Sequence record: MG748548
Reading direction: 5' to 3' (one strand)
Source of the DNA: Escherichia phage EP335
DNA: 64,000 nucleotides
Positions 9,166 to 62,427 of this stretch are shown here, piece by piece. A model generated the notes under the pieces. That model was given only the letters and a program-made list of their open reading frames with translations, was not told the DNA's origin and searched no databases. Position 1 is the stretch's first letter; each line of letters begins with the position of its first letter. The translations under genes were made by a program, and so were the position numbers.

Positions 9166-9185
9166 AAGACCTATACATGACCAAG

Positions 9186-9197
9186 TGTAATGTATAT
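9186..9197 (+). promoter_or_regulatory. promoter-like motif GTGTAATGTATA
   Basis: conserved TAATGTATA-type motif about 35-40 nt upstream of ATG 9230; recurs at 26307, 35797 (+) and 35724, 46340 (-). Confidence 0.35.
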
Positions 9198-26302: not shown

Positions 26303-26318
26303 GTCCTGCCTTCTATAA
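26303..26318 (+). promoter_or_regulatory. promoter-like motif CTATAATGTATATAGG
   Basis: TATAAT hexamer inside TAATGTATATA motif about 45 nt upstream of ATG 26361. Confidence 0.35.
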
Positions 26319-26360
26319 TGTATATAGGGGGTAGGACATTTTTATTTATAAGGAGACGTT

Positions 26361-33497: not shown

Positions 33498-34139
33498 TTA
33501 AGACCCTTGGAATTCTTCCTTGTCGAAGTGCTTCTCTACCACATACTCATACAGATCTTTATACTCTGCATAACGCCGATAGAAAGTCCCGTGTGAGATG
33601 CCTAGCTCTTTCTGAATAGAATCATGAGGGATACCTAAGAAGAGCATTGAGAACATGCTTGCGAGCTTCTGTGTGTCCATTGTATCACTCAAATCTTGGA
33701 AGAAGTAGAAGATACGAGATTCCATGAAAGGGTCCCCAACTGAATCATGCTTATTAACTGCATATTCCAGAGGACCTTCTGAGTAAATGTCAGGGTTGTT
33801 AAACATATCTGCTTCTGGAATAGCATAGATACGTCGATCACCAACTGTCTGTCGATTAGAACGGATAGACCAGATGATATTCTTCACACGATAGGTCATG
33901 TGCTCAATCTCTACTTCACCTTCCAGTAGAAGCTCTTCTTGCTTGGAATAGATAAAACGCCAAACATTAAGCAACACCTCTTGAGCTACATCCTCTGCTT
34001 CATGATAGTCACGAATGTCATACATAAAGAATTTGTGAACCACTTTCCAGTTCACCTTATAGAACTCATCGAAGGTTGGGAAGTATTTGATTGGAATACC
34101 GTGAATACGATATCGAGTAGGTGTTGTTTTCTTAGCCAC
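33498..34139 (-). CDS. phage-encoded sigma factor (sigma-70/ECF-like)
   Basis: region-2-like [15 protein letters not shown] and region-4 HTH-like [16 protein letters not shown]. Confidence 0.6.
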
Positions 34140-34926: not shown

Positions 34927-35667
34927 TTAGAATGGAGATTCGTCTTCTTCAAAAGTAGACTCAGGCTCACGATCGATAGTAGGGATAGAAGCAACCGGCT
35001 CTTTCTGCTCGTTCTCAGAAGCCTTAGTGACTTCACGACCAGCGAGAGGAATGTTCTTAGCGTCATTAGCTTGGGTAAGCAGGTTACGCTGGAATGGGAA
35101 GATTACCTGATAAGCAGCTACGTTATCATCTGTTTCAGCATACGGTTCGAAGAAGACCAGAGGACTGCGAGCAGCAGCAACAGCTTCACGATACTTGGTA
35201 GGAATCGGAGTAATCTGTTTGATAGAGTTCTTAACTTCACCAGCTTTGTTGGTGTAAGAGTTGATTAGAACGTTTACAGGCTGACCTAACAGCATTTCTT
35301 TAAACCAAGCCAAATCACCTTTCAGTGCTTGGATGCTAGGGTCAACCATCTTAATTAGGTTGAGAATACCAGAGTTCTTAGCTCGTGGGTTTACATCGAA
35401 GCTCTTAAACTGACATGCAGGGCGCGGGTCAAGAGCATTGCCTTCAGAGTCCTTACCGGTTGCATCAACACCAATCAGCTCAAACGCCAAGTCCATACGG
35501 AAAGCTGGGTTCTTAGGAGTAACTGCTTTAGTCTTAGGGTCAACCCAAGGGTCACGATTGTGAACACCAAGACCAACAACACGAACGATACGAGCTTCGT
35601 ACTCACCATCAGGGATTACGTCGTAGTTGGATTTACGGGAAACGGACATAGTTGGGATAGAAGACAT
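34927..35667 (-). CDS. single-stranded DNA-binding protein (putative)
   Basis: 246 aa with acidic C-terminal tail ending EEDESPF, characteristic of SSB C-termini; located in replication block. Confidence 0.45.
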   Translation of the reverse strand: MSSIPTMSVSRKSNYDVIPDGEYEARIVRVVGLGVHNRDPWVDPKTKAVTPKNPAFRMDLAFELIGVDATGKDSEGNALDPRPACQFKSFDVNPRAKNSGILNLIKMVDPSIQALKGDLAWFKEMLLGQPVNVLINSYTNKAGEVKNSIKQITPIPTKYREAVAAARSPLVFFEPYAETDDNVAAYQVIFPFQRNLLTQANDAKNIPLAGREVTKASENEQKEPVASIPTIDREPESTFEEDESPF

Positions 35668-35721
35668 ATTTTAATTTCCTTATTTAATTTAAGATTGTTG
35701 CTCACTTTGAGCGGTTATGTA

Positions 35722-35736
35722 TAGTATACATTACAC
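35722..35736 (-). promoter_or_regulatory. promoter-like motif GTGTAATGTATAC (minus orientation)
   Basis: reverse complement of 35722-35736; in 415-bp AT-rich intergenic region upstream of minus-strand gene starting 35667. Confidence 0.3.
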
Positions 35737-35981
35737 CTATACCGATAAGGGTGCTATATAGTATAAGCAGTAGTGGTAGTAGATATTGACTACTAGTAAT
35801 GTATATATTGTATAGATGATAATTCTATTGCAGGCTTGTATATTGGGCAATTCTCAGAATCCCTTGCAAGTACCGAAGGGCAGGAGACACCTGCGAGATA
35901 AAAATAGAGAATTAAGGAATCCTTGATTTAGGTTGTAGGGACTCCTAGGGACTTTGATTCTCTATTTAAAAGAAATATTAA

Positions 35982-36089
35982 TTACTTACTACCTAAATAG
36001 TTAACTAACTTACTTAAAACCTTTTCAATAAGAATTGCTAAAAGGATAATTCCTAAGAAAGCTAATAAGAGAAAGGCATAAGTTACCAT
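35982..36089 (-). CDS. unannotated 35-aa single-TM peptide
   Basis: MVTYAFLLLAFLGIILLAILIEKVLSKLVNYLGSK; ATG 36089 overlaps stop of upstream ORF; ggaatgatgga upstream. Confidence 0.3.
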   Translation of the reverse strand: MVTYAFLLLAFLGIILLAILIEKVLSKLVNYLGSK

Positions 36090-36334
36090 TCCATCATTCC
36101 TTTTAATCTAGATTCTTCTACTATTCGCTGATAGAGTAAGTTAGACTCAGCTTGATCTTTTAACATTTTACTGTATTGATCTCTGAGACTATCTTTATAA
36201 ACAACAGGTGGTTTAAATAGTGATGATACTTTGTTCTTTTCTTCTTTCATCAAAAGTCTTCCTAATCTCTTGCAGAGATACAGCTTTAAAGTTGATTTGT
36301 TCCATCGAGGTACAGAAGTATCTCCAATCATCAA
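36083..36334 (-). CDS. hypothetical protein (true start probably internal)
   Basis: track ORF overlaps 3' end of phosphoesterase gene by 120 nt in another frame. Confidence 0.25.
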   Translation of the reverse strand: MMIGDTSVPRWNKSTLKLYLCKRLGRLLMKEEKNKVSSLFKPPVVYKDSLRDQYSKMLKDQAESNLLYQRIVEESRLKGMMEW

Positions 36335-36719
36335 TCACATGATTGTGAGTATGAGCATAGATGTTGAACTTCCCTCTCATTTCATCAGCGTGAATGGGAA
36401 TGTGAGTCACCCAAAACTCTTTGTACTTGAAGTCACCTGATACAGTTCTGAACACTTTCATAATCTGTGGTAACAAATCCAGTCTGTCATGATTCCCTAA
36501 GACAAGATGCTTCTCGCCTTTAATCTCATAGATGATATCCAGTGCATATGGTTCAAACACCCAATCACCAGTGAAGAAAGTCTTATCTCGTTTAGTCACA
36601 TGGTCAAACGCTGAAAGAACTGCTTTATCGTGCTCTTCAATACTACCAAACTGTTTACGAAACTTGCAGATATTACGATGACCTAAGTGACCATCTCCTG
36701 CGAAATATACTTCAGCCAT
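36213..36719 (-). CDS. calcineurin-like metallophosphoesterase (Ser/Thr phosphatase-like)
   Basis: motifs GDGHLG, TGDWV, LGNHD, HTHNH. Confidence 0.7.
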   Translation of the reverse strand: MAEVYFAGDGHLGHRNICKFRKQFGSIEEHDKAVLSAFDHVTKRDKTFFTGDWVFEPYALDIIYEIKGEKHLVLGNHDRLDLLPQIMKVFRTVSGDFKYKEFWVTHIPIHADEMRGKFNIYAHTHNHVIDDWRYFCTSMEQINFKAVSLQEIRKTFDERRKEQSIITI

Positions 36720-36728
36720 AAAGACCTC

Positions 36729-36929
36729 TTAGATTGTGCAACCATCACACACGAAATCCCCACTCAGGGATTCTTGTAATAAACGACTTTGTTCATCAGA
36801 GACTAACTGATTAACAACTTTCTGTAACTCTAACAGTTGATCAAAATCTATATATCCCCCTTCCTCAAGAACGTTAGTTTCAATCCCCCATAAAGGTGAT
36901 GGCATGTTTCTGCTTGCATTAAAAATCAT
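36729..36929 (-). CDS. hypothetical protein
   Basis: track ORF starts at TTG 36950; internal ATG 36929 has aaggaaa RBS. Confidence 0.35.
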   Translation of the reverse strand: MIFNASRNMPSPLWGIETNVLEEGGYIDFDQLLELQKVVNQLVSDEQSRLLQESLSGDFVCDGCTI

Positions 36930-37084: not shown

Positions 37085-37287
37085 TTAACTTCCTCAATAT
37101 CAACTAGTTCAAAACTTCCTATTTCTTCAAGCTGGATAATCTCTTTAACCTTCTCAACAGCTTTAATAGGGTTTTCTTCTTCTACAACTTTACACCCTGA
37201 CACTTCGAGACTGCCTGTTCCACGAAGGTATAGATTTAACTTATAGATCACTTTGTAATATTTCATCGTATTCCCAATTTCTTTCAT
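37081..37287 (-). CDS. hypothetical protein
   Basis: ORF track 68 aa. Confidence 0.35.
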   Translation of the reverse strand: MKEIGNTMKYYKVIYKLNLYLRGTGSLEVSGCKVVEEENPIKAVEKVKEIIQLEEIGSFELVDIEEVK

Positions 37288-37420
37288 AATATCCAGAGTT
37301 GTAGTTTAGGGCGCATTTCTCAGCCTCTTCTATGTCATCTGTGTTTAGGATATTAACCCAACCACCAACTTCATCAAAACCCTCTTCTTCTTCATTAAAC
37401 CATACGCTGTATTTCTTCAT
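37241..37420 (-). CDS. small acidic protein
   Basis: ATG 37420 (track start 37441 is TTG); D/E-rich MKKYSVWFNEEEEGFDE... Confidence 0.35.
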   Translation of the reverse strand: MKKYSVWFNEEEEGFDEVGGWVNILNTDDIEEAEKCALNYNSGYYERNWEYDEILQSDL

Positions 37421-38768: not shown

Positions 38769-39140
38769 TTATTTCTCCAACACTGAGATACTGTACCAAT
38801 TGTGTAAGGTTTTTCTAACCCAAGCAATGCGTTTAGGGTTTTTGTGATGAGAGCCTGTGTAACGTTCTCTGTGGTATGTGTCACAACCGAAAGGGTATAC
38901 CGGGTCCTCAAACCCTTCGTGTTCAAACATATACGTCAGGTCATTAAAGTCTATATGTTTTGTGAAGAAGTAATAGCTTTTATAACAACGGTAGTTGAAA
39001 CACAAACCGTGCTCAGGACTGAACCATTTTGGGTATTCGTCTGTCTGAGAGATGTTATAATACTGGAGGAGGAAATCCTCCATCCCCCTTTCTTTGGCAA
39101 TACATCTTAGTGTTCGGTACATAATGTTACTCTGCTTCAT
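38769..39140 (-). CDS. hypothetical Cys/aromatic-rich protein
   Basis: ORF track 123 aa. Confidence 0.45.
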   Translation of the reverse strand: MKQSNIMYRTLRCIAKERGMEDFLLQYYNISQTDEYPKWFSPEHGLCFNYRCYKSYYFFTKHIDFNDLTYMFEHEGFEDPVYPFGCDTYHRERYTGSHHKNPKRIAWVRKTLHNWYSISVLEK

Positions 39141-39149
39141 TGTGAATTC

Positions 39150-40997
39150 TCAGTGTGTGTGATTCCAGTTTAATCCAATCTGACAATCAGATGCCAGAGG
39201 GCATTCCATCTTGAGATACTCACCAGCTTTCTTAACACAAAGCTCTGTAAGTTCTTTTAGTTTTTGTGCATCATTACGGTGAACAGAGAACTGCCCTTCA
39301 TCGTGCATGTCAATAACCTTCGCACAACGAACACTATCACGCTCAATCCACTTGTTAAGGAAAAGCATGGCATACTTCATAACAATCGCACCAGCACTCT
39401 GTAAGAGTGTATTCAGTGCTTTATGAACCATAACCTTACCTGTTGCGTCACGTCTCATTGTAATACGACGACCATCAACACCCAAGATATAACCTTGAGC
39501 TGCTTTCTCTGTCATACGCTCAATAAGAATTGCAATACAAGGATTCTCTGCCAAGAAACGTGTTCTCATTACTGAACCTTCTTCAGAGCCTCCACCAACA
39601 ATAGAACCAAGCTTAGCATCACCTGCTCCGTAGTTGAACGCATAGATAAACGTCTTAGCGTTGTCACGAGTAGGAAGACCAGCAAGTCTCTGGTTGTGGG
39701 AGTGGATATCACCTTCTAATAGAATGTCACGATACATAACAGCAGAAGCTAAACCACGTTCAGCTAATGCTTTCTTACCAGCGTTACCTTCTGCAATTGC
39801 TTCAGCAAGCATGTCTCTACACTCTTTAATGAGGTAGTGAGCAAGCATACGAAGTTCTAATCCAGAACCATCATAACCTAGGAAGAGTTCTCTACCAGCT
39901 GGTACATAATACTTATACAGCCCTACTGGTTTGTCTTTCTTTCCGGGTTTTCCACGTTCGTAGATAACGTTTGTATTTTTTCGTAAGTAACACCCATCAG
40001 GGATATTGTTGGTAATGATGAAAGGATAGTTATGACTATCATCTGTGGAGTAGTTAGATTGAAATAAACTCCTACACTCGTGACCAAACAGACCGCGAGA
40101 AGGAATATTAACAACAATGCGATGTTTAAAACGAAATGTCGGAGTAGCGCAGCTATTAGCTTCCGCTGAGAGTTTACCATCTGGACGTTCCTTATCAATC
40201 AGTCCATTAATCAAGCCTAGTCTGTGAGCCGCTACAACACGTCTCTTAAGCAGACTTCCCACTTTACCTAGATCACCCTCAAGACCTTCTTCAAGAGTCT
40301 CTTCGAGGTTTGTAGGAGCTGTGGGCCACTTGTTCGAAGTAGCTAATGCTCTCTTAATTTCATCAAAGGTTACAGGTTTCTTCCTGTTAGGGTTTAAACC
40401 TAAACCAAAGACATAAGCCTTCATGTAGTTGACAGTTTTGTGACGAAAGTGCTTATCCAAGAACTTCTTGATATCAGCATCAACCATCTGAGCTGTCTGT
40501 CGCTCTTTCTCATTGCCACGCATCCAAGAGTTGTACCATTCTTGATACGTTCCACACTTACGCATGGCTCGCTTAATCTCAAATGTGTTCCAAGGCTTCT
40601 TAGATGTATTAAATTCTGGAGGAAGAAAACCTTCATCCATCAGTGCTTCTTTAACTCGTGCATCCTTTGATGGGTCAAAGTCAACATACTCAACACAAGT
40701 AAAAGCTCCACCAATATCTTCTCTCTTTAACCCCACTCTGTCGCAATATAATTGAGGCCACTTCTGAAGAGCACCAGTCTTCTTAAAGGGTTTCATGTAA
40801 GTAGAACCATCAACCCTCATCTTAGGTAACAGAGGAATCAGCTCTCTGTCGATGTTAACGATAATCTCTCTGAGAAGGTGAACATACCACCGTGCATTCC
40901 TCCGATTAAAGTTGACACCACTCTTCGCTTGCTTTGAAATTATATCAGCGACAGTCATCTCCGTTAAGAACGGAAGTACATCAGGGTTCTCCATCAC
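39150..40997 (-). CDS. DNA polymerase, family A, polymerase domain only
   Basis: motif A DGSGLELRMLAHY, motif B RDNAKTFIYAFNYGAGDAKLG, motif C VIDMHDEGQF; no 3'-5' exonuclease motifs in N-terminus. Confidence 0.85.
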   Translation of the reverse strand: MMENPDVLPFLTEMTVADIISKQAKSGVNFNRRNARWYVHLLREIIVNIDRELIPLLPKMRVDGSTYMKPFKKTGALQKWPQLYCDRVGLKREDIGGAFTCVEYVDFDPSKDARVKEALMDEGFLPPEFNTSKKPWNTFEIKRAMRKCGTYQEWYNSWMRGNEKERQTAQMVDADIKKFLDKHFRHKTVNYMKAYVFGLGLNPNRKKPVTFDEIKRALATSNKWPTAPTNLEETLEEGLEGDLGKVGSLLKRRVVAAHRLGLINGLIDKERPDGKLSAEANSCATPTFRFKHRIVVNIPSRGLFGHECRSLFQSNYSTDDSHNYPFIITNNIPDGCYLRKNTNVIYERGKPGKKDKPVGLYKYYVPAGRELFLGYDGSGLELRMLAHYLIKECRDMLAEAIAEGNAGKKALAERGLASAVMYRDILLEGDIHSHNQRLAGLPTRDNAKTFIYAFNYGAGDAKLGSIVGGGSEEGSVMRTRFLAENPCIAILIERMTEKAAQGYILGVDGRRITMRRDATGKVMVHKALNTLLQSAGAIVMKYAMLFLNKWIERDSVRCAKVIDMHDEGQFSVHRNDAQKLKELTELCVKKAGEYLKMECPLASDCQIGLNWNHTH

Positions 40998-42026: not shown

Positions 42027-42084
42027 TTACAACTCCTTAATATATCAGTGTACACTAAGGAGTATACATTATGAGAGGGTAGCT

Positions 42085-46335: not shown

Positions 46336-46350
46336 ATACTGTATATACAT
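46336..46350 (-). promoter_or_regulatory. promoter-like motif AATGTATATACAG (minus orientation)
   Basis: reverse complement of 46336-46350; about 35-45 nt upstream of minus-strand gene start 46304. Confidence 0.3.
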
Positions 46351-46376
46351 TTGAGAGTGATCATATCTACTACCAA

Positions 46377-54204: not shown

Positions 54205-56223
54205 TTAATTATGACCTTTACAGTGCACTGAATCGCACACCACTTGATTGGTATTGTTTAGTGTGCAGAGTTCTGCATCACGCCACGGAATCTTTTTAAA
54301 ACAGACTGCACAAAACCCAAGAGTAGACCAGAGGGCTTTTGTGAAGGTTGCTGATCGGTTTCCATCGAAGGACGCAACTGTTCTGGTAATTGAGACTTTT
54401 GACTCACGAAAGGTTTCCGCTGCTGGAGCGGGTTCCTCCTTTGGGGTAGTCACTGCAATAGCATAAACACCACCCCAACGCTTCTCAATGTAAGCACCGA
54501 ACACATCTTCCAGAGTGATTTCACTCTTACGTTTGGTTGAGGATTCCATGACAATCATGTTGTCCAGAATCTTTTGATCAACACGAAGAGCTACTTCAGG
54601 ACGTCGAGCACTTGTTGTATCAACATACTTGGTCCAAACATAACCCTCTTTCAGAGTGACTTGAGTTGCTTGCTTCTTTGCTTTATTAGCACAGATTTTA
54701 CAAACATCGTCACCACGAAGTTTACTGAACTCTTCATCAAATTCAAAGTCAGACTTCACTTCGCCGCACACTGAACAAACGCCGATAGGAATCTCATCCT
54801 CTTCAACGTCTTCCACTTGCTTCTGGATAGAATCAAAACAAGCTTTATGCCAATATGCTTGGTATGCGAAGATCGCACTTGGTGCTTCTTTCCAGTCAAT
54901 GTGCTTATCACATCCACCACAATCACCGTGGGAATGGGCTTCCCAGAACTTACGAGTGATAGTCACCCCATTCTTGCTGACAAAACTATCCTCTGCATCA
55001 AAAGGGATATCATCATCGAAATCAGCTGTAGTGCTTTCCGGCTCCTTTTTCGACAAGTCAAAGAAGTGACCAGAGATCAACACCAAACGAATCATGCTAT
55101 TAACTTCAGAGATACAGCCAACCGTACCACGGTAAACCATATGCTTGTTCTTAAGAGCAGCTTCGTAATCAGTTTGCAGGATGTTATGAACATCACCCTC
55201 AATATACTCTTGAGCTTTGTCATCATAAATATAACCAACCATCTTACCGCGATCGGTATCTTTATAACAAACAAACTCGTGAGGAATAATATCAACCTGC
55301 ATATCACGACGGACATCAACACCTTTGTCAGAGGCGATCTTGTTTTGTTTCAAGATTGCTTCACGACGACGTACATCACCTGCGGTTACGCCGGGCTTTC
55401 TTTGCTCGTCGCTGTTCCCGTTTACGTAACTTTTTGTCACGCTTGAGTGATTGTTGCTGTAGCTGTTCGAGTAATAACTTCCCCAACGCGTTGCTACCGT
55501 AAAAACCGGGAGTTCATGTACGACCTCCTCTACCAAAGTCATCTTGTTGTCAGAAACATCAAAGATGTACTCTGTACCGACTTTACACTCAAAGTGCTCA
55601 TCAATTCGGTTCTTGTGGCTCTTAGAACGCTGAAGAATCCACATTAGCATCGCTTCTTCTGAAGCACCAAACCATGAAGTTCCCAGACGGGCCAGATGGA
55701 AAGGACGTTCATCGTTACGAATGATGTGAAGACGGTTATCACTTGCATCATGCCAGATTAGAGTGAATGCACCATCCAACTTCTGAATAGTCTCTGCTGC
55801 ACCAATCTTGTTAATAGAGTGGCAGATGTTCTCACTATCAACCTCAAAAGCCTTACTGTCAGGCAGAAGGTCTTGATCAACTAAGGTTCCGTTATGAACC
55901 AGAGTAATATTTCCGTGAGAGAATGGGTGAGCGTTACGTGAGTTAATAGCGCCTTTCGTAGCATGTCGGCTGTGACCAACAATCCATGAAGGAGGCACTG
56001 TGTAATTAGTAAGGCCAGTTGTCAGCTCGGTGTACTCTTTCTGTAACATGAAAGCATAGGAAGGCAGTGCTTCTTTGTAAGAGAACACAGATCTTTCGCT
56101 TTTACGCTGACCGAAAATACCAGTTGAGTGTTGACCACGAAATACACCAGCATAAAGAAGCTGGTTGTAAATATCTAAGTCATAACTTGAGAGGCTTCCA
56201 CCTGCTAATACGATACCACAAAT
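54205..56223 (-). CDS. class-II (Ntn) glutamine amidotransferase domain protein with Cys-rich C-terminal domain; probable non-canonical ATT start
   Basis: in-frame upstream sequence K-I-CGIVLAGG...HSRHATKG...NAHPF...VHNG; Cys codon 56218-56220 preceded by ATT with aggtgga 7 nt upstream; track start is GTG 56088. Confidence 0.6.
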   Translation of the reverse strand: MCGIVLAGGSLSSYDLDIYNQLLYAGVFRGQHSTGIFGQRKSERSVFSYKEALPSYAFMLQKEYTELTTGLTNYTVPPSWIVGHSRHATKGAINSRNAHPFSHGNITLVHNGTLVDQDLLPDSKAFEVDSENICHSINKIGAAETIQKLDGAFTLIWHDASDNRLHIIRNDERPFHLARLGTSWFGASEEAMLMWILQRSKSHKNRIDEHFECKVGTEYIFDVSDNKMTLVEEVVHELPVFTVATRWGSYYSNSYSNNHSSVTKSYVNGNSDEQRKPGVTAGDVRRREAILKQNKIASDKGVDVRRDMQVDIIPHEFVCYKDTDRGKMVGYIYDDKAQEYIEGDVHNILQTDYEAALKNKHMVYRGTVGCISEVNSMIRLVLISGHFFDLSKKEPESTTADFDDDIPFDAEDSFVSKNGVTITRKFWEAHSHGDCGGCDKHIDWKEAPSAIFAYQAYWHKACFDSIQKQVEDVEEDEIPIGVCSVCGEVKSDFEFDEEFSKLRGDDVCKICANKAKKQATQVTLKEGYVWTKYVDTTSARRPEVALRVDQKILDNMIVMESSTKRKSEITLEDVFGAYIEKRWGGVYAIAVTTPKEEPAPAAETFRESKVSITRTVASFDGNRSATFTKALWSTLGFCAVCFKKIPWRDAELCTLNNTNQVVCDSVHCKGHN

Positions 56224-56297
56224 TTTCTAATCCACCTGAAGGGTAAACCCTTTCATCTAATTAACCTTTAGTTGTGCCCCTTTCGAGGCACCCATTG

Positions 56298-62194: not shown

Positions 62195-62228
62195 AGGGGA
62201 ATAGCTCCTAAAAATCATGACTGCGCAG

Positions 62229-62240
62229 AGGGAATTCCCT
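62229..62240. promoter_or_regulatory. perfect 12-bp palindrome AGGGAATTCCCT (operator-like)
   Basis: between minus-strand terminator hairpin and RBS of gene starting 62194. Confidence 0.3.
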
Positions 62241-62244
62241 ACGC

Positions 62245-62268
62245 AAAAACGACGCTAAAAGAAGCGTC
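62245..62268 (-). terminator. rho-independent terminator candidate
   Basis: minus-strand gacgct-tctttt-agcgtc followed by gttttt. Confidence 0.45.
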
Positions 62269-62427
62269 ACAGTAGTTGAAAAGAGGTACAGAAACAGGGG
62301 TTATTTAGCTACCTTTTTCTGACCGTTTACGAACCAGATAATTGAACCGTCAGGCTGTCGTTGACCGAAGCCTTTCATGGTTAGCATGTCTTCCGAAAAC
62401 TCTTTAAAAGTAATCACTTACTTACCC

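Follow-up and report, generated by a model that had tools for sequence, protein, structure and literature searches.

Bacteriophage phiEco32 encodes a sigma factor, gp36, that directs host RNA polymerase to promoters carrying the element tAATGTAtA (PMC4331800, PMC8948821, PMC4281155). Transcription starts 6-8 nt downstream of this element (PMC8948821), and six gp36 promoters have been mapped, upstream of genes 6, 13, 26, 40, 58, and 68 (PMC4331800, PMC8948821). In the open-complex structure, AATG occupies positions -14 to -11, and in the P68 open complex, determined by cryo-electron microscopy, the C-terminal domain of gp36 reads G-37 and A-34; mutating these bases abolishes transcription (PMC12276001). 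Here we analyze the intergenic gap upstream of gene 40 in Escherichia phage EP335, using a 64,000-nt stretch of its sequence (record MG748548; hereafter, the window). An earlier examination of this DNA, made without database searches (the sequence-only reading), had suggested that the gap could be a divergent promoter hub or a replication origin. We find that, in addition to the ortholog of the known promoter P40, the gap carries a putative second gp36-type promoter of opposite orientation that appears to make a conserved, structured, non-coding RNA of ~155 nt (35812 to ~35967).

EP335 is a phiEco32-like (Kuravirus-type) coliphage. The 551 bp around the gap are 100% identical to Escherichia phage KarlSchell_Bas89 (Bas89) and 87-95% identical to 96 further records of phiEco32-like coliphages (Kuravirus and Suseptimavirus; Gordonclarkvirinae). 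The genes that flank the gap, including the SSB-like gene 40 on one side and the genes for a 35-aa hydrophobic peptide (gp41) and a phosphoesterase on the other, are all on the minus strand. Coordinates of these genes and of the elements described below are given in Table 1.

gp36-type promoter motifs upstream of gene 40

The sigma factor encoded in the window is 83% identical to phiEco32 gp36. The promoter-reading residues are all kept (E79, H80, Y83, R84, W90, S91, S94, N95, Y186, and R187), and the FYRR segment and another segment of 17 residues are identical to gp36. The exact sequence TAATGTATA occurs five times in the window compared to 0.58 copies expected, and none of 100 shuffles contained five or more. 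Two of the five copies are located in the gap. When one mismatch was allowed, we detected no enrichment in the window (19 versus 16.6).

The leftward copy is the ortholog of experimentally mapped P40 and serves gene 40. It lies 58 nt upstream of the gene 40 ATG, is invariant in all aligned relatives, and is identical in sequence to the P40 published for phiEco32 and SU10. In the SU10 promoter table, this P40 sequence is placed between CDS37 and CDS38 (PMC4281155). The gp36 dependence of P40, as well as its stimulation by gp79, rests on the phiEco32 mapping cited in two reports (PMC4331800, PMC8948821), and the start at A35718 in the window is predicted from the published spacing rules.

The rightward copy is preceded by the sequence GGTAGTAGAT at a distance of 12 nt. 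The composite GGTAGTANAT-N12-WAATGTATA has two sites in the window, with none expected by chance: this one and 46344-46374 on the minus strand. The second site is the ortholog of P68, according to the promoter sequence given in SU10 Table S2, and the -35 box and spacing of the rightward promoter are identical to those of this ortholog.

To assess conservation, we compared 23 different versions of the locus, drawn from metagenomes, IMG/VR, and the phage database. GGTAGTA(G/T)AT and the 12-nt spacer are found in all 23 versions and exact TAATGTATA in 22. Variation is confined largely to the sequence around these boxes: 16 of the 18 positions in the spacer and discriminator vary, compared to two of the 19 positions in the boxes (Fisher p = 1.7e-6), and the 12-nt spacer has at least nine different sequences among the 23 versions. 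Relatives with 70-81% gene 40 identity keep GGTAGT and AATG with an N11 spacer, and AATG is kept in the more distant relatives L031, L033, L035, and L036 (our L numbers denote individual relatives). The motifs themselves, together with the architecture of the promoter and its conservation, are evident from the sequence and its comparison, and by these measures the rightward motif is a complete putative promoter of the phage sigma gp36 class. We infer that it is transcribed, with a predicted start at ~A35812.

The suggestion of a divergent promoter hub is therefore borne out as two back-to-back phage-sigma promoters, with predicted starts at ~35718 (leftward) and ~35812 (rightward), one being the ortholog of mapped P40 and the other having both boxes conserved in relatives. 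Since all flanking genes are on the minus strand, one of these promoters is antisense. The two opposed motifs of the sequence-only reading correspond to the two TAATGTATA copies in the gap, and every motif that it listed is present where it was placed. Four points had escaped it: the antisense orientation, a predicted RNA instead of a gene as the product, the location of its repeats within a hairpin, and the lack of conservation of TTGACT. This hexamer, which it had singled out, is indeed present at 35786-35791 on the plus strand, but it does not hold up as a conserved element, since relatives do not keep it.

Because TTGACT is located in the variable spacer of the rightward promoter, we rejected it as a -35 hexamer. 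A second TATTGTATA (35806-35814) was rejected as a tandem promoter. As neither sequence is conserved in relatives, both are probably incidental. A scan for sigma-70 promoters, which models no phage sigma, gave matches at chance level (5 versus 3.2). The rightward promoter is absent from the published list of six promoters (PMC4331800, PMC8948821), and the SU10 table gives neither a plus-strand promoter nor a terminator in this gap (PMC4281155). We found nothing in the literature on Kuravirus transcriptomes or a phiEco32 small RNA.

The spacer between the two promoters contains part of a direct repeat, GGTTATGTATAGTATA / GGTGCTATATAGTATA. In L006, L010-L014, and L025 (myPSH2311), an insertion of ~150 bp separates the rightward -35 box from P40. 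This insertion carries a 45-codon basic ORF (open reading frame), MKFNHKYAATEKARAYVTARQSRVYKRQSPTNNSKETFVWTKPTTFR, which is interrupted by a stop in L006, followed by the hairpin CTACCTTCCGGTAG, and it supplies P40 with a GGTAGT -35 box at the canonical distance.

The gp36-type promoters of the window lie at 9188-9196(+), 26316-26324(+), 42063-42071(-), 46344-46374(-), 35725-35756(-), and 35775-35805(+), and classes can be distinguished among the -35 regions of the TAATGTATA promoters. GGTAGT occupies positions -37 to -32 in the P68 ortholog, in the rightward promoter, and in P40 of the insertion-bearing relatives. The P58 ortholog has GGCAAC and P40 of the window has AGCACC, while both late-type promoters (9188+ and 26316+) share AAGACCTA at -37 to -30. 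Differences in the -35 box might separate middle from late promoters. In addition, inverted partial copies of the -10 element adjoin three gp36-type promoters (35715-35733, 9172-9196, and 46337-46352). At P40, the result is a palindrome, ATGTATA-N-TATACAT, in which the arms are kept and the central base is C, T, A, or G among relatives. These inverted copies could reflect a preference in the initial transcribed sequence, a regulator site, or chance.

The predicted plus-strand RNA and its terminal hairpin

The other gp36-type promoters of the window have a ribosome site and a start codon within ~35 nt; both are missing after the rightward promoter. No conserved ORF lies downstream of it, with none of at least 22 aa in phiEco32 or rybdy3, and the reading frames shift between RNA variants. 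A small protein could be envisaged from a 36-aa plus-strand ORF (35816-35926), as its ATG is at +5 of the predicted transcript and the 36-codon frame is found in both the window and KBNP1711. However, phiEco32 has CTG in place of the ATG and an early stop in the frame, the frames of the variants differ from one another, and there is no ribosome-binding site. The comparison among relatives effectively refutes this possibility, and we rejected the ORF as a gene because it is not conserved. A 37-aa ORF on the minus strand, which spans the least conserved stretch, was also rejected for lack of conservation.

The predicted RNA begins with a hairpin that starts exactly at +1. Among 13 variant-A sequences, this 5′ hairpin contains two covarying pairs (UA/GC; CG/AU/UA) and one GC/GU alternation. 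We gathered more distant relatives via their gene 40 homologs. In these other lineages, unrelated stems occur at +1 (AGAGUUA/UAACUCU, ACAUC/GAUGU, UCUCU/AGAGG, and ACAGU/ACUGU), giving five stems in all. For nine of nine sequences, the minimum free energy hairpin begins at nucleotide 1, with shuffle fractions of 0.01-0.17 each.

Downstream of the 5′ hairpin is a middle domain that exists in at least four unrelated versions: A in the window and phiEco32, B in phages of the ECBP2 and ES17 type, C in L031, L033, and L035, and D in L036. With variant B, the predicted RNA would measure ~185 nt. One helix of variant C contains two compensatory pairs (CG to GC and UA to CG), as well as invariant U.G and G.U pairs that can form on the plus strand only. 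In the GC hairpin that follows, the stem of L033 is GCUGG/CCAGC, which represents one compensatory change. Compensatory changes are thus found in three helices, those of the 5′ hairpin, the middle domain, and the GC hairpin. Both this covariation and the absence of coding potential are direct results of comparing the relatives.

The pairing also distinguishes the strands. The 5′ hairpin, the middle domain, and the 12-bp stem of the terminal hairpin all contain G.U pairs, whose equivalents on the minus strand are A.C mismatches. The consensus folding energy favors the plus over the minus strand for both variant A (-39.2 versus -29.5) and variant B (-47.6 versus -39.5). The evidence for the plus strand is good, if not unanimous. 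We also scanned for known RNAs. Rfam 15 had no family at gathering score in the window, and a search of 35690-36010 at E values up to 10 gave one chance match, to FIE3 (E 8.5). A scan of the window for tRNAs and tmRNA found none.

The last and longest element is the terminal hairpin, the core of which is a 12-bp stem formed by 35906-35917 with 35952-35963 and containing two G.U pairs. Even where gene 40 identity drops to 70-81%, the core stem and the loops do not vary; because of this invariance, the hairpin is uninformative on covariation. The AGGGACT repeats reported around a CCTAGG palindrome in the sequence-only reading belong to this structure. They are two copies of TAGGGACT (35936-35943 and 35946-35953) around CCTAGG (35944-35949), and all lie in the upper and inner helices of the hairpin.

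On the minus strand, the same hairpin is followed by UUUUUAUCU, in which the run of five U residues (U5) corresponds to 35904..35900. This U-tract is invariant in all relatives, save for one 1-nt deletion. The hairpin is presumed to be also the intrinsic terminator of the upstream operon (phosphoesterase through gp41), located just before P40. As a terminator it is an atypical, AT-rich example. A simple terminator scan did not call it, since the stem is AT-rich and has too few G-C pairs.

We measured conservation across the locus as the mean pairwise identity in an alignment of 10 genomes. Identity was 0.64-0.69 between the two promoters, 0.73-0.96 in the gene 40 coding sequence, 0.91-1.00 over 35851-36060, and 1.000 over the hairpin positions 35940-35969. 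A 164-nt core is 95-99% identical in 64 of the 97 records, compared to ~87% for the surrounding 551 bp. The stretch that runs from the -35 box to the end of the hairpin is left intact by the insertions and gene replacements of relatives, which lie exactly outside it. Examples are the 45-codon ORF inserted between the promoters and the gp41 gene, which is present or absent to the right of the hairpin. Therefore, the promoter, the RNA, and the hairpin behave as one module. The gp41 gene is outside this module, being absent in ECBP2, Paul, Bas86, Bas87, and EK010, which keep the RNA module.

The module is found in all 97 relatives in the phage database and in metagenomic relatives down to ~70% gene 40 identity. 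It is unannotated in nearly every record and is annotated as an RNA in no record examined. Relatives with gene 40 identity of 67% or less (L008 and L038-L041) lack the module, as do 7-11, GAP52, and the Proteus and Aeromonas phages; in module-lacking relatives, the gap upstream of the gene 40 homolog measures 0-213 bp. Searches with nhmmer found no homolog in L008, 7-11, GAP52, Proteus J3S, or Aeromonas LAh_8 (gaps 0-103 bp). We rejected a host or bacterial origin of the module, as neither 5,426 E. coli genomes nor the GTDB genomes contained a match. Two independent metagenomic contigs from Logan, L034 and L037 (23 kb and 29 kb), end ~200 nt upstream of the gene 40 homolog, inside the module. 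The polymorphic middle domain may have broken the assembly there, or the ends may have a physical cause.

One explanation for the conserved block is that it combines the terminator of the upstream operon with a recombination linker, the plus-strand TAATGTATA being a silent by-product of AT-rich, palindrome-prone DNA. Gene content does change exactly at both edges of the block, as expected in mosaic phages, gp36 motifs tend toward nearby inverted partial copies at the three sites listed above, and most helices are invariant. We nevertheless consider this explanation very unlikely. Relatives preserve the -35 box, the -10 element, and the precise distance between them, even as the spacer and discriminator sequences drift, and the same composite occurs elsewhere in the window only at a bona fide promoter. 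Moreover, covariation and plus-strand-specific G.U pairs are present, and a plain terminator needs no ~90 nt of extra conserved sequence on its downstream side.

Candidate functions of the gap

We lean toward the view that the product of the rightward promoter is a stable regulatory RNA of the middle phase. The gap would then be a transcription control node, in which two back-to-back phage-sigma promoters share one hairpin. Minus-strand transcripts of the upstream middle operon would end at this hairpin and its U5 run (35967..35897), and polymerase carrying the phage sigma would restart at the P40 ortholog (~35718) to transcribe gene 40 and downstream genes, including the sigma gene. The same holoenzyme would also start at ~35812 and transcribe rightward, against all neighboring genes, to produce a ~155-nt non-coding RNA made up of the +1 hairpin, the exchangeable middle domain, the GC hairpin, the A-rich linker, and the near-invariant terminal hairpin.

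In this node, the RNA would accumulate during the middle phase, with the 5′ and 3′ hairpins protecting its ends. A partner, either protein or RNA, would recognize the invariant linker and terminal hairpin, and lineage-specific specificity would come from the swappable middle domain. The RNA would automatically be antisense to any minus-strand read-through from the terminator into gene 40. That the product matters as an RNA is argued by the hairpins at its ends, the covariation, and the conservation of the loops.

Several observations weigh against a regulatory RNA. Its start sites and ends, like its function, are predicted from sequence features. On the plus strand, the hairpin is followed by UUUAAAAG, which is a poor U-tract and is not conserved, being UUAAAAUC, UUUUAAAAC, or AAUUAAAAC in relatives. 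Because the tail is poor and variable, the 3′ end of the RNA is uncertain. Transcription may stop at a weak bidirectional terminator, the end may be generated by processing, or there may be read-through, in which case the transcript may continue antisense to gp41 and beyond. The 5′ hairpin is weak in the window (-1.7 kcal/mol). Most helices are invariant and carry no covariation information, so that tests of the whole structure are carried by a few pairs. In our reading of the alignment, one change in the apical stem of the middle domain, in the Paul variant, makes a G.U pair on the minus strand and an A.C mismatch on the plus strand. The high conservation could partly reflect recombinational homogenization at the module boundary, and one metagenomic relative carries TAATATATA in place of TAATGTATA.

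Searches for partners and relatives of the RNA also gave no support. When we searched for targets in the phage, duplex energies with 203 translation-start regions were no better than those of shuffled RNA, and the same was true of the longest stretches complementary to phage mRNAs of the window. The RNA had no match in Rfam, E. coli genomes, or GTDB genomes. Finally, there is no report of the rightward promoter in the accessible literature; the primary phiEco32 papers (Savalia 2008, Pavlova 2012) are outside that scope and may mention a second motif.

The poor plus-strand tail raises the possibility that the act of rightward transcription alone matters and that the RNA product has no function. 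In one version, head-on polymerases would strengthen the terminator, helping it to insulate the P40 unit from the upstream operon; in another, a long antisense RNA would shut down the upstream middle genes late in infection. Read-through into the antisense of gp41 and of the phosphoesterase operon is plausible given the poor, unconserved plus-strand tail, the rightward promoter faces an actively transcribed operon, and the minus-strand U5 run is invariant. What transcription alone leaves unexplained is the compensatory changes in three plus-strand helices, the hairpin exactly at +1, the near-invariance of loops and linker over 70 nt, and the coincidence of the module boundary with the end of the hairpin. 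We therefore regard interference as quite improbable.

Base composition bears on the proposal of a replication origin. As the sequence-only reading had noted, the gap is AT-rich (31.8% GC compared to 42.9% for the window). The AT-richness is uneven, with 29% GC in the two promoter segments and 24% to the right of the hairpin. The conserved core (35812-35967; 39.7%) is near average in GC, and two AT-rich stretches flank this GC-normal body of the RNA. On the plus strand, the AT-rich tract comes directly after the RNA; it also overlaps the gp41 ORF, in its 3′ half. Its identity among gp41-bearing genomes is 0.93-0.955, and genomes without gp41 have a different AT-rich stretch in its place.

The gap could contain a transcription-activated or RNA-primed origin, where the rightward transcript opens the duplex or primes leading-strand synthesis. 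The promoter would fire into the hairpin, whose TAGGGACT repeats are a possible initiator site, and then into an AT-rich unwinding region. In keeping with this idea, AT content in the window peaks immediately after the hairpin, whether measured over 60, 100, or 150 bp (35953-36110), and the promoter pair (35680-35829) ranks second among 150-bp stretches. The AT-rich stretch is conserved, and AT-rich sequence persists where gp41 is missing. The locus lies among replication genes, with the SSB-like gene 40 beside it and DNA polymerase and primase/helicase annotated around it in the close relative Bas89, and the hairpin is conserved in sequence, beyond structure, which fits recognition by a protein.

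Other features fit an origin poorly. The gap contains only two-copy repeats, with no conserved iteron array or DnaA-type repeats; the sole conserved pair, the two short TAGGGACT repeats, changes jointly in some relatives (AGGGACT to AGGACT) and with altered spacing. Conservation in the gap is lowest between the promoters. The AT-rich tract is ~155 nt from the start and beyond a stable hairpin, whereas the unwinding region of T7 and T4 origins directly follows the promoter, and the AT-richness is due in part to the ORF for hydrophobic gp41. The module is also absent from the relatives with gene 40 identity of 67% or less, 7-11, GAP52, and the Proteus and Aeromonas phages. Covariation in the helices, including that in the end-protecting 5′ hairpin, suggests a stable RNA over a transient primer. 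GC skew revealed only the gene-strand switch near 31 kb; it reflects gene orientation and is uninformative. On balance, we consider an origin unlikely, although by no means far-fetched.

If, as we can suggest only tentatively, the module and the AT-rich tract do form a replication origin that is opened or primed by a structured RNA made after sigma takeover, the start of replication would be tied to the switch from early to middle transcription. This phage subfamily would gain its first defined origin, and firing would depend on the phage sigma factor.

For the regulatory RNA that we favor, the implications concern the sigma switch itself. phiEco32 is a model for phage replacement of the host sigma, and its promoter set is treated as six, all before protein genes. 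A seventh promoter, antisense in orientation and carrying a -35 box of the P68 type, would add an output to this switch. The conserved structured RNA is a candidate phage regulatory RNA or, alternatively, an origin transcript. Its exchangeable middle domain adjoins a hairpin that does not vary, which suggests that the RNA is modular and that lineages differ in its specificity. Therapeutic Kuravirus-type phages exchange the gene cassettes on either side of the module. If the gap is engineered or annotated in ignorance of the RNA and of the shared terminator, expression of the SSB and sigma operon could suffer.

Table 1. Coordinates of genes, promoter elements, and RNA elements at the gene 40 gap (window numbering)
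Feature	Position	Strand	Details
Phage sigma factor gene (gp36 type)	33498-34139	-	downstream of gene 40, 1.5 kb from the promoters
SSB-like gene 40	34927-35667	-	phi32_40 ortholog; ATG at 35667-35665
Gene 40 mRNA 5′ untranslated region (predicted)	35668..35718	-	51-nt leader
Shine-Dalgarno sequence of gene 40	35675-35681	-	AAGGAAA
Leader hairpin GCUCA-AAG-UGAGC	35700-35712	-	-5.6 kcal/mol, z -3.3
P40 ortholog	35725..35756	-	TAATGTATA at 35733..35725; weak -35 AGCACC at ~35755-35750; predicted start A35718
Inter-promoter spacer	35735..35774		least conserved part of gap
Rightward gp36-type promoter (putative)	35775..35805	+	GGTAGTAGAT-N12-TAATGTATA
-35 box GGTAGTAGAT	35775-35784	+	G-37 = 35775, A-34 = 35778
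Promoter spacer, 12 nt	35785-35796	+	holds TTGACT
-10-type element TAATGTATA	35797-35805	+	AATG at -14..-11
5′ hairpin AUAGA-UGAUAAU-UCUAU	35812..35828	+	begins at predicted +1
Middle domain, variant A	35830..35877	+	unrelated sequence in variants B, C, and D
GC hairpin GCAGG-AGACA-CCUGC	35880..35894	+	-7.9 kcal/mol; loop base A/C
A-rich linker GAGAUAA	35895-35901	+	after GC hairpin
Long terminal hairpin, 66 nt	35902..35967	+	-23.5 kcal/mol, z -2.8
Same hairpin as presumed terminator	35897..35967	-	-18.2 kcal/mol, z -3.5; then UUUUUAU
AT-rich tract	35957-36056		21% GC, most AT-rich 100 bp of 64-kb window
35-aa hydrophobic peptide gene (gp41)	35982-36089	-	phi32_41 / Bas89_0034 ortholog; PHROG 24970, E 4e-15
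Phosphoesterase gene	36213-36719	-	PHROG 547 match

The gap was measured against ORFs of at least 50 aa on the coding strand. By this measure, 35668-36082 (415 bp) is the largest ORF-free stretch of the window, as had been stated before, and the runners-up are 209 bp. The entire stretch had been described as non-coding, with a hidden 35-aa ORF at its end. The ORF is present at 35982-36089 on the minus strand, but it is not hidden, being already annotated as phi32_41 / Bas89_0034; since it is a real conserved gene, the truly non-coding part is 35668-35981, or 314 bp. Two other ORF-free stretches of the window, 56089-56297 and 62219-62427 (209 bp each), probably hold clusters of early (sigma-70) promoters as listed for SU10.

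Two further observations concern neighboring genes. Over the whole window, identity to Bas89 (PQ850613.1, L026) is 87-98%, with indels, for example at 36734-36737, 37265-37416, 38769-39150, and 39626-39631. In the same part of the genome, the Bas89 record contains HNH endonuclease genes and a DNA polymerase gene split by an endonuclease. The indels are typical of mobile-endonuclease mosaicism. The gene 40 family ends in an acidic tail with an invariant P-F (consensus DDDxPF; EEDESPF in the window protein). This tail resembles DDDIPF, the partner-binding tip of bacterial SSB, which suggests that the phage SSB-like protein could compete for host proteins that interact with SSB.

Comparison with known systems

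The closest counterparts of the two motifs are the phiEco32 promoters themselves. The rightward promoter has the same -10 element, tAATGTAtA, as P68 and P40 and shares with P68 the -35 box GGTAGTAGAT and the 12-nt distance; the leftward promoter is the positional and sequence ortholog of P40. Unlike the six listed phiEco32 promoters, the rightward promoter opposes the direction of the genes, and it is the sole gp36-type promoter in the window that lacks a ribosome site and a gene after it. The leftward arm is already known as P40; the rightward promoter and its predicted RNA are undescribed in the accessible literature.

Among phage RNAs, the predicted RNA is most readily compared with lambda OOP (77 nt) and P22 sar (~69 nt). 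Both are antisense RNAs made by host sigma-70 polymerase that overlap a coding end or a ribosome site, and OOP lies next to the lambda origin. Like these, the predicted RNA would be a short RNA with its own promoter within a unidirectional operon, transcribed against that operon, ending in a hairpin and complementary to the junction of two genes on the opposite strand. It differs in being about twice as long and dependent on a phage sigma and, unless there is read-through, in overlapping only the intergenic terminator region. Its exchangeable middle domain and sequence-invariant terminal hairpin are needless for pure cis-antisense action, and there is no sequence similarity to OOP or sar.

The primary origin of T7 consists of the phi1.1A/B promoters and an AT-rich region, and T4 oriF and oriG consist of a middle-mode promoter and a downstream unwinding element. 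The gap resembles these origins in that a phage-specific promoter points toward an unusually AT-rich stretch among replication genes. However, the AT-rich tract here is separated from the promoter by a strong hairpin and ~155 nt of conserved, structured sequence of normal GC content, and the rightward promoter points against the direction of gene transcription.

Bidirectional intrinsic terminators of E. coli and phages place one hairpin between an A-tract and a T-tract and serve convergent transcription units. The terminal hairpin shares this arrangement: it is flanked by an A-tract and a T-tract on opposite sides and lies between convergent units. It differs from these terminators in that it is long (66 nt), AT-rich, and branched, its loops are invariant in sequence, and a good, conserved U-tract is found on the minus-strand side only.

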